Shown: in pieces, positions 21,893 through 27,247 of the stretch
Layout of the letters: each line of letters begins with the position of its first letter
Position numbering within the stretch: position 1 is the stretch's first letter
The notes under the pieces: generated by a model
Database searches by the model: none
The model's input: the letters and a program-made list of their open reading frames with translations, nothing else
What the model was told of the DNA's origin: nothing
Translations under genes and position numbers: made by a program
Source of the DNA: an uncultured Clostridia bacterium
GTDB lineage: Bacteria; Bacillota; Clostridia; TANB77; CAG-508
Reading direction: 5' to 3'
Length of the DNA stretch: 64,000 nucleotides
NCBI GenBank assembly: GCA_934155625.1
Contig: CAKPHD010000001.1
Span: 932 to 64,931 of the forward strand

Positions 21893-22234
21893 TTACATAT
21901 AATATATTAATATTCCTAACAGAATAAGCCCATTGCCTAAGATTTTCTTTTTAGTAATCTTTTCGCCAAGAATTCTATTACTTAAAATCATTACAAAAAG
22001 ATAACCCAAAGATTCTATTATTGGCTCGTTTTTATAAGAAACCCCTTTTAGTCCAAACACTACAAGCACAGTTGAGATTACCATTAAAATATAACCTGTT
22101 ATTACATATACATTTAAATATTCTTTTAAAACTGAATTATAAGATTTGGAAGCACTTTTTTTCAAAATAATTTGAGATATTGAGCTTACCCAAACCGCCA
22201 AAATCAATAATACTACATATTTATTCATCTTCAT
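21893..22234 (-). CDS. Small 4-TM EamA/SMR-like membrane protein (ArnE/ArnF-type flippase subunit)
   Basis: 113 aa, hydrophobic. Paired with the next gene by an overlap. Confidence 0.55.
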   Translation of the reverse strand: MKMNKYVVLLILAVWVSSISQIILKKSASKSYNSVLKEYLNVYVITGYILMVISTVLVVFGLKGVSYKNEPIIESLGYLFVMILSNRILGEKITKKKILGNGLILLGILIYYM

Positions 22235-22619
22235 TATTCACTATAATTGTTCCTATTATTACAATTAATACTCCTATTACATTTTTTATTGTTATTGTAT
22301 CATTAAAGATTAGAATTGCCCATACAATTGACCAAAGTAATCCCATAGCTTTATTTGCATACGCTATTGAAACATCAAATTTTTTCAATAATTGTTGCCA
22401 AATAATTGCATATACACCTAAAATCATCATCTCTATTCCATAGTATAATATAAATTGAAATGACATAAATTCTTGGCCTGATGCAAATTTAGCACAAACA
22501 GTTGATAATGTATATATTGCAATAACAATCTGAAGAATACATATATCTTTTAACTTTGTTTTCTTCTTTTTTTCGTTATCTAACTTTACTAATTTTGTTT
22601 TCTCTACCTCTTCATTCAT
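22221..22619 (-). CDS. Small 4-TM EamA/SMR-like membrane protein (ArnE/ArnF-type flippase subunit)
   Basis: 132 aa, hydrophobic. Overlaps the downstream partner. Confidence 0.55.
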   Translation of the reverse strand: MNEEVEKTKLVKLDNEKKKKTKLKDICILQIVIAIYTLSTVCAKFASGQEFMSFQFILYYGIEMMILGVYAIIWQQLLKKFDVSIAYANKAMGLLWSIVWAILIFNDTITIKNVIGVLIVIIGTIIVNNEDE

Positions 22620-22639
22620 TAGAAATTAATTCTCCTTTT

Positions 22640-23767
22640 CTAAATTGCTAAAATATAATATCCATATCTTGTTGAGCTATCAACAATTTTATGAGAATTT
22701 ATTTTTTCTATAGGACTTATATAATAAATATATTCTGGGTGTTCTTTTTTTACTTTTTCTAATTCTTCTACATCAGATTCTGTAAAAATGAAATTGATAA
22801 CCGCCTTTTTAGGTTCTACAACTTTTGTAAAATCTGGTGCATTTCCTAAAGCAACATCTATAACCATTTTTAAAAAATCATATCCTGTTGAAATTTTCAC
22901 TAAATCTGAGCCTATGCAGTCTCCACCCATTCTAGCTCCAATTTCAATTATCTTTACTTTTCCATCAGATGTAATTTTAAATTCTGCATGTGATGCTCCA
23001 TTTGTAATTTTTAAACTATTTAATCCTGCAAAAACTTCTTTTTTTATTTTCTCTACCATTTCTAAATCTAATCCTGCTGGTTGAATGTGCCCTGTTTCTA
23101 TAAAATGTGGTGCACCTGTTGTTCTTTTTCTTGTTATTGCTAATAAAGTATGTTTACCATTATACGAAATACTTTCAGCACTAAATTCTTCACCATCAAT
23201 ATATTCTTCTATAATAGCCATTTTTTCAAATGAAACCTTTATTGCATTCTCTATTGCTTCTTTTAATTTTCCAGATTCTACTTCTTCCCAATTCTCTATT
23301 TTATTGATTGATCTGCTTCCAGACCTGTCTGTTGGTTTTACAATAATTGGCATTGAAAAATTACTTATTTTAGATATTTCTTCTTTTCCTGTACCTGCAA
23401 CTTTTGTAAATTTAGGAACTGATACTCCATTTGATAAAAATGCTTTTCTCATTTCATATTTATTTGTAGATAATCTTGTACATTCAAGGCTATTTCCTAC
23501 AAGTCCTAATTTATCTGCTAAATAGTTTACTGTTAATGTGGCCAAATCTGATGCAACTGAAATAACCGCATCTGGCTTTATTTCTTTACATTTAGCTAGT
23601 ATTCTATCTTTTTCTACTATACTTATTGGATAAAAATAATCTGCAAAATCAGCACCAACAGCCCCTTCTGCCCAAGCAAATACATGCGTTTCATACCCTA
23701 GTTCTTTAGCTTTTATTATGAGTGGCATCTGAAAATTATTTGCTCCTATAATAACAATTTTTTTCAT
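22640..23767 (-). CDS. ATP-grasp domain protein (carboxylate-amine ligase)
   Basis: 375 aa. N-terminal pre-ATP-grasp region, ATP-grasp fold motifs, and a C-terminal ExGARMGG-like segment. Confidence 0.65.
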   Translation of the reverse strand: MKKIVIIGANNFQMPLIIKAKELGYETHVFAWAEGAVGADFADYFYPISIVEKDRILAKCKEIKPDAVISVASDLATLTVNYLADKLGLVGNSLECTRLSTNKYEMRKAFLSNGVSVPKFTKVAGTGKEEISKISNFSMPIIVKPTDRSGSRSINKIENWEEVESGKLKEAIENAIKVSFEKMAIIEEYIDGEEFSAESISYNGKHTLLAITRKRTTGAPHFIETGHIQPAGLDLEMVEKIKKEVFAGLNSLKITNGASHAEFKITSDGKVKIIEIGARMGGDCIGSDLVKISTGYDFLKMVIDVALGNAPDFTKVVEPKKAVINFIFTESDVEELEKVKKEHPEYIYYISPIEKINSHKIVDSSTRYGYYILAI

Positions 23768-24948: not shown

Positions 24949-24960
24949 CTTCTTTCTATT

Positions 24961-26304
24961 TTAGTTATAAGCCGGTATTACATATGAGAATATCGCTTTA
25001 AATGATATTGCAATAATTAATAACATTACCATTATAATTATAATATTTCTTATTTTTTCTGACTTTATAAATTTTTCTAGCATCGTCTGAATTCCATTTA
25101 CCACAAAATACACAAATGGTATTATAATTCCCATTATATATCTACCCTGTGGTTGAAAATCACTTGTATATGAATATATAATGCTTAAAAGTATTGGTAT
25201 AATAATTGCTATTACAAAAATATAATTTAAAATATATTTACTTTTTTCCTCTTTTTTATAAATAAATAAATCTTTAAATTTTAATAAACATCCAAGTCCT
25301 CCTATTAACCAAAGACCCAAATATGAATAATATATTTTATTTGACATTAATATACTATGATATCCGAATATTCCCACAAAACTTTTTGCTGTTGTATTAG
25401 CCCATGCATCTTCATCTAACATGTGCCAAATGCTTTCATTGCTATTTTCTGGTGTTTTTCTTACTGATGGCTTATATTGTTCTAAAGCATATTTATCTCC
25501 ATATTCATTTTGTGTTTTGGTTCCTAATATATCTCCATCATAAATTATTGCATTCCTTACAAACCACCAACCTGCAACTGCAAAAGCTACACTTGCTACT
25601 ATTAAAGCTTTTTTTGCAATTTCTTTTGCACCCATTTTGTTCAAAACAGCTGAACTTAAACAAATTAATACACTACATAAAATATATCCATATGCATTGT
25701 AATATGTTAAAGCACAAAAGCCAACTGCTCCACCTAGTAATATACAATGTTTTGTTTTCCAATTGCTTTCCAATCCTAATATCCATAAATAAATTATCAT
25801 AGATATTGCTAAAATTGCAGTTGAATCATTATTTATATACGAAGCTAAAAATGCAGTTATTGGCTGAAATGCAATAAATACTATAAATAAATATTTGTAA
25901 ATTCCTTTATCTTTAAAAAGTTTATTCGCAATCTTTATTACAAAGTATATTGTCAATGTCATACTTATTGTACTTACAAGTCTTGCCGCTACTACTAATA
26001 CAAATTGTTGTGTAGTAAAAATTGATGCTATCTTTACAAATACTGCACAAATCATATATGTAAGAATTGGTTGAAATGCATACGAAATTCCCCAAATTGA
26101 ATCTCGTATACTTTCATCTCTTCCATCTGGTATTGAATTATGTTCTGCAATATATTTACAAATATCCCATTTCATTTTTTCGTCTGGGCATGAATTATAT
26201 GGTTGTGATACTGTCCATATTAAATAATAACCAAATAAACCAATTAAAAATATAGCCATTATAATTTTCTTATTTTTTTTGCATATTTCTAAAATTTTAT
26301 CCAT
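24961..26304 (-). CDS. GT-C fold glycosyltransferase (ArnT/PMT-like, polytopic membrane protein)
   Basis: 447 aa with more than 10 predicted TM helices and a first-loop D/E-rich motif. Confidence 0.6.
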   Translation of the reverse strand: MDKILEICKKNKKIIMAIFLIGLFGYYLIWTVSQPYNSCPDEKMKWDICKYIAEHNSIPDGRDESIRDSIWGISYAFQPILTYMICAVFVKIASIFTTQQFVLVVAARLVSTISMTLTIYFVIKIANKLFKDKGIYKYLFIVFIAFQPITAFLASYINNDSTAILAISMIIYLWILGLESNWKTKHCILLGGAVGFCALTYYNAYGYILCSVLICLSSAVLNKMGAKEIAKKALIVASVAFAVAGWWFVRNAIIYDGDILGTKTQNEYGDKYALEQYKPSVRKTPENSNESIWHMLDEDAWANTTAKSFVGIFGYHSILMSNKIYYSYLGLWLIGGLGCLLKFKDLFIYKKEEKSKYILNYIFVIAIIIPILLSIIYSYTSDFQPQGRYIMGIIIPFVYFVVNGIQTMLEKFIKSEKIRNIIIIMVMLLIIAISFKAIFSYVIPAYN

Positions 26305-27247
26305 TGTTAGTTTTTTCTCCCTTTTCCACTTTTTCTATAATATATGGTGGTCTTTTTCTTGCTGCATCAAAAGTTCTCCATAAATACTCTCCAAGTATTC
26401 CAATTGATAACATTATAATTCCAAATCCCACTAACATAATTATAATAATCGATGCATATCCCTCTACATCAATTATTCCTGTCATTTTTTTATAAATTAT
26501 AATTAACAACCAAATTAGTGCTATAAAAAAGCTTAAAATTCCTACTGTAGTTATCATTTTTATAGGAAAATATGAAAAACTTAATAGAGAATCATATACT
26601 AATTTAATTTTTTTAGATAATGTCCATCTTGATTTTCCTATTTCTCTTTTTTTTCTAACATACGGAACAGTTGATGTTTCAAAACCTGCCCATAAAATTT
26701 GACTCATTAATGAAGTATTGCTTTCTTGAATTTTTACTAGAAAATCTATAACCTGTCTGTCTATTAAAAATGAATCAAATCCTCCTTTTGGCATATTATG
26801 TAATGCTAGTTTTCTCATTAAAAATGCATATAAATTTGAAAATGCTTTTTGCGTAACAGGCTCATCTCTATCTGCTCGTACAGCTAAAACAACTTTACTT
26901 CCTTCAATATATTTTTTAATCATATCTAATATCATTTCTGATGGCTCTTGCAAATCAGCAGCTTTCCTTACAGCGCAATCTCCAGTGCATTGAGACAATC
27001 CTGCCAAAATTGCAGAATGTTCTCCAAAATTTCTTGATAATCTTATTGTTTTTATATTAGAATCAATTTTTGCTAGCTCTTTCATTACTTTATACGAATT
27101 ATCTTTTGATCCGTCATCAACAAATATTAATTCATATTCTATTCCTTCTGGTAATTTTGTAAGTACTTTTTCCTTTAAGTCAGCATATAATGGCAAAAGA
27201 TTATCTTGATTATAATATACTGGAACTACTATTGAAATTTTTTTCAT
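26297..27247 (-). CDS. GT2-family polyprenyl-phosphate sugar synthase (ArnC/GtrB-like) with C-terminal TM helices
   Basis: Begins MKKISIVVPVYYNQDNL, includes DDGSKDNS, and has two C-terminal TM segments. Confidence 0.8.
   Translation of the reverse strand: MKKISIVVPVYYNQDNLLPLYADLKEKVLTKLPEGIEYELIFVDDGSKDNSYKVMKELAKIDSNIKTIRLSRNFGEHSAILAGLSQCTGDCAVRKAADLQEPSEMILDMIKKYIEGSKVVLAVRADRDEPVTQKAFSNLYAFLMRKLALHNMPKGGFDSFLIDRQVIDFLVKIQESNTSLMSQILWAGFETSTVPYVRKKREIGKSRWTLSKKIKLVYDSLLSFSYFPIKMITTVGILSFFIALIWLLIIIYKKMTGIIDVEGYASIIIIMLVGFGIIMLSIGILGEYLWRTFDAARKRPPYIIEKVEKGEKTNNG

Follow-up and report, generated by a model that had tools for sequence, protein, structure and literature searches.

A WecE-type aminotransferase and an ATP-grasp ligase in a predicted transmembrane glycosylation operon of Clostridia

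Multi-component transmembrane glycosylation, reviewed for GtrA/GtrB/Gtr*, CsbB-GtcA-YfhO, GacI-L and the lactococcal CsdAB (PMC8035078; also PMC11127046), has three parts: a family 2 glycosyltransferase (GT2) that charges undecaprenyl phosphate with a sugar, a small flippase in the membrane, and a GT-C enzyme that bears an acidic motif in one of its outside loops and decorates a polymer outside the cytoplasm. Such extracytoplasmic sugar decoration in Gram-positive bacteria influences the host range of phages, resistance to antimicrobial peptides and recognition by the immune system, and the systems studied draw on common, ready-made UDP-sugars (UDP-Glc, UDP-GlcNAc or UDP-Gal) and on a GtrA- or Wzx-type flippase. 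Here we describe an operon-like module of six genes at 21893-27247, minus strand, of a 64,000-nucleotide stretch of DNA from an uncultured Clostridia bacterium (contig CAKPHD010000001.1, positions 932 to 64,931; the whole stretch is called the window below). The module shares these three kinds of component, but it encodes sugar-tailoring enzymes of its own, namely an ATP-grasp ligase and an aminotransferase of the WecE type, and has a pair of EamA proteins as its candidate flippase and a DUF2142 protein as its GT-C enzyme.

Judged from sequence and models, the module has the features that define multi-component transmembrane glycosylation in Gram-positive bacteria, namely a GT2 with predicted C-terminal membrane helices, small membrane proteins encoded alongside it and a putative GT-C enzyme with an acidic outside-loop motif. 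It is not an Arn pathway, and its WecE and ATP-grasp half sets it apart from the known systems of this kind. Our literature searches returned no paper with this gene combination, nor one that links an ATP-grasp enzyme to such a system.

Four groups of described systems resemble parts of the module. Amino sugars are added to lipid A by Arn, FlmF2/NaxD/FlmK and LgmABC. With Arn the module has in common an amino sugar made by a DegT enzyme, a predicted masking of the amine in the cytoplasm, an ArnC-like GT2, a small four-helix pair as candidate for the flipping and a predicted transfer by a GT-C enzyme. It differs from Arn in that the predicted sugar is a dTDP-derived 4-amino-4,6-dideoxyhexose and not UDP-linked aminoarabinose (UDP-Ara4N), that ArnA and ArnD are missing, that an ATP-grasp enzyme replaces the formyltransferase, and that the equivalog cut-offs all fail; moreover, with a host from the Clostridia, lipid A is excluded as the acceptor. 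The dTDP-Fuc4NAc route of enterobacterial common antigen (ECA; RmlA, RmlB, WecE, WecD) shares the WecE step and, as we predict here, the N-acylation of the amine at the nucleotide-sugar stage. Unlike that route, the module has an ATP-grasp enzyme in place of the GNAT acetyltransferase WecD, with no acetyltransferase domain in the operon, and it would pass its sugar to a lipid monophosphate and a GT-C enzyme, whereas in the ECA pathway WecF adds it to a repeat unit built in the cytoplasm. The L-amino-acid ligases (YwfE/BacD, BL00235, RizA) have the same ATP-grasp fold and make an amide from an acyl-phosphate and an amine, but the amine predicted here is a nucleotide sugar and not a free amino acid; NikS and PolG, amide ligases of nucleoside antibiotics, have the ATP-grasp fold as well. 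Finally, the lactococcal DUF2142 proteins WpsI and WpsJ have a proposed role in cell-wall polysaccharide assembly (PMC12599335). These, and the DUF2142 genes of rgp loci, belong to the same Pfam family as the GT-C protein of the module and are likewise polytopic and encoded beside a GT2 in Gram-positive glycan loci. Compared by their descriptions, these proteins are proposed to polymerise or attach whole oligosaccharides from a lipid-diphosphate, while the module implies a single sugar on a lipid monophosphate.

The operon and its six products

The six open reading frames (ORFs) lie on the same strand, and their limits are exactly those given by an earlier, sequence-only reading of the window, which had proposed an Arn-like glycan modification cluster. 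From the GT2 gene to the last EamA gene they are spaced by -8, 12, 38, 20 and -14 bp (negative values are overlaps). The sole terminator-like hairpin within 21600-27600 is on the minus strand at 21863-21889 (read from 21889 to 21863), directly 3′ of the last EamA gene and between the operon and the convergent asnB. On the other side, an 80-bp gap separates the GT2 gene from uvrA (27328-30159, minus), so that the disrupted asnB and uvrA bound the cluster as had been described. A weak promoter-like candidate, TTGAAA-16-TAAAAT with 10 of 12 matches, was assigned to this gap after uvrA (27321-27348, minus), and in this region matches of this kind are not commoner than in shuffled sequence. With their tight spacing and the single terminator after the last gene, the six genes form one operon-like unit. 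Pfam and NCBIfam confirmed the domain call for each of the six products. For comparison we took the best 80 loci from relatives of the ATP-grasp protein, found in 276 GTDB species genomes; 81-83 loci were compared, depending on the analysis (L numbers below), and gene presence across the 83 loci was scored by tblastn and ORF clustering. Their grouping is not a matter of chance, since most of these 83 loci, from other species, have them as a cluster too.

The aminotransferase of the DegT family (380 aa, 23806-24948) passes the WecE-type NCBIfam models PRK11706 (624 bits, cut-off 375) and TIGR02379 (612 bits, cut-off 435) and aligns with the solved Escherichia coli WecE (4piw) at E = 3.7e-151, with 60% identity over 374 columns. 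It had been read as ArnB-like, but the ArnB model NF008658 gives it 189 bits against a cut-off of 631. By these family scores it is a WecE orthologue, a dTDP-4-keto-6-deoxy-D-glucose 4-aminotransferase, and not ArnB-like. Since it passes the WecE models and fails that of ArnB, the predicted sugar is a dTDP-derived 4-amino-4,6-dideoxyhexose and not Ara4N; the sugar nucleotide should be dTDP-4-amino-4,6-dideoxy-galactose rather than aminoarabinose. Genuine RmlA, RmlB and RmlD, all above their NCBIfam cut-offs, are encoded beside the DegT/ATP-grasp pair in several related loci, and both RmlA and RmlB adjoin it in L037, L043, L049, L075 and L080. A cluster of "RmlB-like" ORFs was dropped as evidence of the origin of the sugar, as it is mixed and only some of its members are genuine dTDP-glucose 4,6-dehydratases; its other members, proteins of 329 aa from the short-chain dehydrogenase/reductase (SDR) family, were not counted because they fall below every NCBIfam cut-off (55 bits with the dTDP-glucose dehydratase model). 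This additional 329-aa protein is absent from the window and is found in Oscillospirales-type versions of the module, between or beside the DegT and ATP-grasp genes (L039, L041, L045, L047, L057, L072 and L081; for example at 9008-9997 of L041).

The ATP-grasp protein (375 aa, 22640-23767) carries PF13535. Its profile matches in the PDB are led by 4dim (1e-40), an uncharacterised protein, followed by the L-amino-acid ligases BL00235 (3.5e-35) and BacD (1.7e-24). A structure modelled with AlphaFold2, with a mean predicted local distance difference test score (pLDDT) of 86.3, gave the same ranking when searched with Foldseek: 4dim, BL00235 (3vot, template modelling score (TM) 0.82), RizA and YwfE came first, PurK and biotin carboxylase next, and the formate-using PurT 45th. 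By its sequence and its modelled fold the protein is thus most like L-amino-acid ligases, though it lies far below the BacD equivalog cut-off (60 bits, cut-off 850). For its amine substrate, gene context points to an amino sugar. In 66 of the 83 related loci no more than 150 bp separate the DegT and ATP-grasp genes, and 81 of the 83 have the two within 4 kb; in L075 the order is rmlA-degT-grasp-rmlB, with no GT2 or GT-C gene adjoining. The layout of L075 is that of a nucleotide-sugar biosynthesis cassette, which places the ATP-grasp enzyme at the nucleotide-sugar stage, before transfer to the lipid; by this comparison of loci, the enzyme probably acylates the nucleotide sugar. In both the Arn and the ECA pathways it is N-acylation of the new amine (formylation by ArnA, acetylation by WecD) that commits the sugar, and the ATP-grasp protein is the only candidate in the operon for this role. 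A second, more distant ATP-grasp paralogue is encoded near the module in some loci (3881-5083 of L043, 6475-7776 of L069), a hint that the acyl or peptide chain may be longer in these species.

The GT2 (316 aa, 26297-27247) has PF00535 at 82 bits. PgfS (204 bits) and ArnC (NF007986; 164 bits, cut-off 529) are its top NCBIfam matches, both under their cut-offs, and in the PDB it shows full-length homology to GtrB (5ekp, 7e-51, residues 3-305) and ArnC (9hwj, 1.8e-40). Two C-terminal hydrophobic segments (residues 232-250 and 264-282) are typical of the GtrB/ArnC class. These matches identify it as a GtrB/ArnC-type polyprenyl-phosphate glycosyltransferase, so that the proposal of an ArnC-like polyprenyl-phosphate sugar synthase was borne out by homology, even though the ArnC cut-off is not reached. 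The two small membrane proteins had been called ArnE/F-like flippase subunits of the SMR type. The first (132 aa, 22221-22619), with four hydrophobic segments, matches PF00892 at 29 bits (cut-off 28.2) and has ArnE (33.7 bits) and ArnF (23.3 bits) as its top NCBIfam matches; the second (113 aa, 21893-22234) matches PF00892 at 38.7 bits and has ArnE (22.1 bits) at the top. ArnE and ArnF thus head these lists, with all the scores far below the cut-offs. The pair occurs together in about 70 of 81 loci, and wherever a related locus has subunit 2 it has subunit 1 with it; we regard the two as a candidate ArnE/ArnF-like flippase.

The sixth product (447 aa, 24961-26304) is a polytopic membrane protein that just passes Pfam DUF2142 (PF09913; 33.9 bits, gathering threshold 30.1, residues 77-394), and the precomputed Pfam call for near-identical proteins is also DUF2142. 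This was its significant match in the Pfam search, in which no PMT-type family was reported. Sequence searches of the PDB, with the single sequence and with a 76-sequence profile, gave nothing useful. A word-indexed homologue search recovered near-identical proteins alone (96-100% identity), and in a library of representatives at 50% identity 2318 cluster representatives matched at E<=1e-3. From this library we aligned 76 homologues at 30-45% identity, and used the alignment also for an AlphaFold2 model (pLDDT 96.9, predicted TM (pTM) 0.94). The invariant columns of the alignment are P40-D41-E42, R108, R250 and Q386-G-R-Y389. The protein has approximately ten or more membrane helices, the first at residues 12-33 with D41-E42 directly after it; because the Lys-rich N-terminus is probably cytoplasmic, these two residues would lie in the first outside loop, which is where the catalytic acid of GT-C enzymes sits.

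All of the top 42 Foldseek matches of this model in the PDB are GT-C enzymes (TM 0.40-0.57, identity 9-16%), including STT3/AglB/PglB, ArnT, Pmt1/2/4, DPY19, ALG9/12, Emb and AftB/D. In the modelled structure the protein is a GT-C-fold glycosyltransferase and a member of neither the ArnT nor the PMT family. The sequence-only reading had called it an ArnT/PMT-like GT-C transferase; the GT-C fold stands, and the likeness to ArnT and PMT is one of fold level only, as for ArnT itself (5f15; TM 0.41, 12% identity). That reading had also named what would overturn it, a placement of this protein in an unrelated polymerase family, and here the model matched GT-C enzymes alone, with no Wzy-type polymerase or O-antigen ligase among its significant Foldseek matches.

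Predicted pathway, acyl group and acceptor

From the enzyme families and the gene linkage observed, we infer as follows in what order the steps run and which acyl group, lipid carrier and acceptor take part. RmlA and RmlB, which the window does not encode, would make dTDP-4-keto-6-deoxy-D-glucose, and the WecE orthologue would aminate C4 to give dTDP-4-amino-4,6-dideoxy-D-galactose (dTDP-Fuc4N). The ATP-grasp enzyme would then activate a carboxylate as an acyl phosphate, to be attacked by the 4-amino group of the sugar with formation of an amide, a step that would stand in for acetylation by WecD in the ECA pathway or formylation by ArnA in the Arn pathway; given the likeness to L-amino-acid ligases, the carboxylate would most likely be that of an amino acid. 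The GtrB/ArnC-like GT2 would move the sugar onto undecaprenyl phosphate, the two small EamA proteins would flip the lipid-linked sugar as an ArnE/ArnF-like pair, and the DUF2142 GT-C enzyme, with Asp41-Glu42 in its first outside loop, would hand it on to an extracytoplasmic acceptor, for which a cell-wall glycopolymer is the most probable candidate. That the operon makes an acylated, lipid-linked 4-amino-6-deoxy sugar and attaches it to an extracytoplasmic acceptor is, taken as a whole, the best explanation that we have, and we consider it fairly probable. The logic of the sequence-only reading, in which an amino sugar on undecaprenyl phosphate is flipped and then transferred outside by the GT-C enzyme, would hold under this scheme, as would its idea of an extra acylating step by the ATP-grasp enzyme, possibly with an amino acid, for which the nearest characterised structures, those of L-amino-acid ligases, argue.

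Several points weigh against this explanation. We know of no polyprenyl-phosphate GT2 of the GtrB type with a dTDP-sugar donor, and our literature searches gave no characterised ATP-grasp enzyme that acylates a nucleotide amino sugar. The genes rmlA and rmlB are absent from the 64-kb window and, in the closest relatives, from within 10 kb of the module, so that the supply of the keto-sugar is here only presumed. The assignment of the flippase draws on weak similarity and on context: the EamA proteins score 22.1-33.7 bits against ArnE/ArnF cut-offs of 92 to 99, and no similarity could be detected between the two.

Several alternatives can be set beside this scheme. In the first the chemistry is unchanged but the acceptor is protein: the GT-C enzyme would O-glycosylate surface or membrane proteins in regions rich in Ser/Thr, in the manner of the streptococcal PgfS/PgfM1 and GtrB/PgtC2 systems; we see this as a possible, if tentative, reading. 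PgfS is the top NCBIfam match of the GT2 (204 bits, as given above), several of the structures that the GT-C model matches best by fold belong to protein glycosyltransferases (STT3, AglB, PglB, Pmt and DPY19), and protein O-glycosylation by a GT2 and a GT-C enzyme is documented in Firmicutes (bioRxiv 10.1101/2024.05.05.592596). The streptococcal GT-C enzymes, however, are of the YfhO family and not DUF2142 (same source), and the module has no candidate substrate protein in conserved synteny between species. The TasA-like fibres and the giant protein, suggested as acceptors by the sequence-only reading, fare no better: neither of them, nor any other gene, travels with the module across the related loci. 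A wall glycopolymer is favoured over a protein because the literature connects DUF2142 proteins of lactococci and streptococci with loci for cell-wall polysaccharide (PMC12599335, PMC9746298).

Returning to the acyl group of the favoured pathway, we can envisage that the ATP-grasp enzyme links the alpha-carboxyl of an amino acid to the 4-amino group of the sugar, leaving a free amino group on a stable amide-linked residue and thereby a cationic decoration of the wall polymers. This is a doubtful extension of the scheme. If true, it would provide many gut Clostridia with a chemically robust functional counterpart of Dlt D-alanylation or of Ara4N on lipid A, with effects on how cells resist cationic peptides, adsorb phages and are recognised by the immune system.

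The same pathway could also run with formate, added in the manner of PurT, or with another short carboxylate, which would simply cap the amine for use by the GT2, like formylation by ArnA or acetylation by WecD; this we hold to be unlikely. ArnC, a homologue of this GT2, requires an N-formylated sugar. The NCBIfam matches of the ATP-grasp protein include PurT (40 bits, residues 2-191) and PurD, and its model also fits the structures of PurK, biotin carboxylase and PurT well (TM 0.74-0.81). Against formate, the L-amino-acid ligases BL00235, BacD and RizA match at 1e-24 to 1e-35 and PurT at 2e-10, and by fold PurT ranks well down the list, as described above.

It is quite improbable that the DUF2142 protein is a polymerase which makes a homopolymer or extends a chain from a lipid-monophosphate donor, like the mycobacterial Emb and Aft enzymes or, as proposed, the lactococcal WpsI. 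The putative polymerase of the lactococcal polysaccharide pellicle (PSP), WpsI, does carry DUF2142 (PMC12599335), and the model's fold matches include EmbC, AftB and AftD. The operon, however, holds no gene for a chain-length regulator, a priming phosphoglycosyltransferase or an LCP ligase by Pfam and NCBIfam, and the model of the 447-aa protein lacks a large extracytoplasmic domain like those of Emb and AftD. A true Arn pathway, with aminoarabinose added to lipid A, has a similar gene logic and ArnC, ArnE and ArnF among the top NCBIfam matches, but it is refuted by the family scores (ArnB, ArnC, ArnE and ArnF all below their cut-offs, the aminotransferase passing the WecE models), by the lack of an ArnA or ArnD domain in the six products (Pfam, NCBIfam) and by the close relatives, all of them Clostridia, a class expected to lack lipid A, and its probability is negligible.

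The module as we predict it would add a tailored, acylated 4-amino-6-deoxyhexose, a type of donor that we did not find reported for multi-component systems. It also predicts a new activity for an ATP-grasp enzyme resembling L-amino-acid ligases, the acylation of a nucleotide amino sugar, which would be useful for glycoengineering.

Distribution of the module and its neighbourhoods

The best 80 loci mostly carry the module and are almost all from Clostridia. Near the ATP-grasp gene (its own cluster counted in 81 loci) we found DegT in 74-81, GT2 in 71, each EamA gene in 70-71 and DUF2142 in 44 loci. The carriers include small-genome uncultured gut lineages, among them Clostridium sp. CAG:389, Clostridium sp. 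26_21/26_22 and a complete chromosome of 1.55 Mb (OV788638.1) that encodes proteins with 93-99% identity to the six of the window. Further carriers are Acutalibacteraceae and Lachnospiraceae with cultured members (Laedolimicola, Hominiventricola, Anaerosacchariphilus). The module is thus kept in many human and animal gut Clostridia, and with the cultured Lachnospiraceae it is experimentally testable.

The GT-C gene diverges fastest and retains about 50% identity, against 65-69% for the other five genes. In loci from Lachnospiraceae the DUF2142 gene is replaced by genes for other polytopic proteins. These have no Pfam or NCBIfam match, and in each of them the first helix is followed by an invariant acidic pair; profile-profile comparison of these with DUF2142 by hhalign was not significant (E 0.078 and 0.13). 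Such divergence and replacement fit a conserved donor with lineage-specific acceptors.

Two neighbours were considered as members of the module and rejected. A gene for an Orn/Lys/Arg decarboxylase lies beside the module in 15 loci, where it adjoins holB and a PSP1-domain gene, and we take it to be part of a housekeeping block with the Bacillus subtilis order yaaO-tmk-holB-yaaT. The asnB gene is convergent and accompanies the module in the closest relatives only.

In L036, L040 and L046 (about 12800-19200) the module adjoins two to three paralogous polytopic proteins and one or two proteins with a CotH-kinase domain, which suggests a larger surface-glycan locus. Two loci bear labels of other groups, L036 that of a Bulleidia sp. 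and L048 that of Alistipes onderdonkii. Their gene order is that of the Lachnospiraceae loci L040 and L046, and the contigs are probably mis-binned rather than cases of cross-phylum transfer.

Other features of the window

Just upstream of uvrA a protein of 546 aa is encoded (30287-31927, minus), whose N-terminal end is basic and leads into a hydrophobic segment, and which has no Pfam match at E<=0.001; the same holds, at this threshold, for a protein of 2218 aa (57232-63888, minus). At 44114-47834 (minus) three ORFs without a Pfam match flank a signal-peptidase-like gene (45585-46193, Peptidase_S24/S26); these three are probably the TasA-like fibre genes of the sequence-only reading. They lie approximately 17 kb from the operon, and no link between them and the module was seen in other genomes.

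A stop codon at 20132-20134, in frame, interrupts the convergent asnB (about 19895-21847, plus). This stop is carried by an insertion of about 135 bp (20084-20218), a tandem repeat of a 37-38-bp unit that is inserted in frame after the N-terminus of the glutaminase. The closest relatives, L005-L008, align across this stretch and L009-L011 have a gap there, so that by alignment these three appear to be without it. In two close relatives asnB fragments adjoin the last EamA gene, with a full asnB 4-5 kb beyond (L005, 11921-12465 and 17350-19266; L007, 12064-12349 and 16230-18173), and the region downstream of the operon appears prone to rearrangement.

The 37-38-bp unit belongs to a dispersed family, mostly intergenic, which forms short tandem arrays of 2.4-3.7 copies and has no Rfam match at gathering score, as is true of the entire 64-kb window. 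Arrays lie at 14859-14996, 15821-15910, 20108-20216 and 33251-33380, with shorter copies near 32484, 35825, 41728, 53001 and 57163-57221, and each unit contains GAGAACCGGTCCC.

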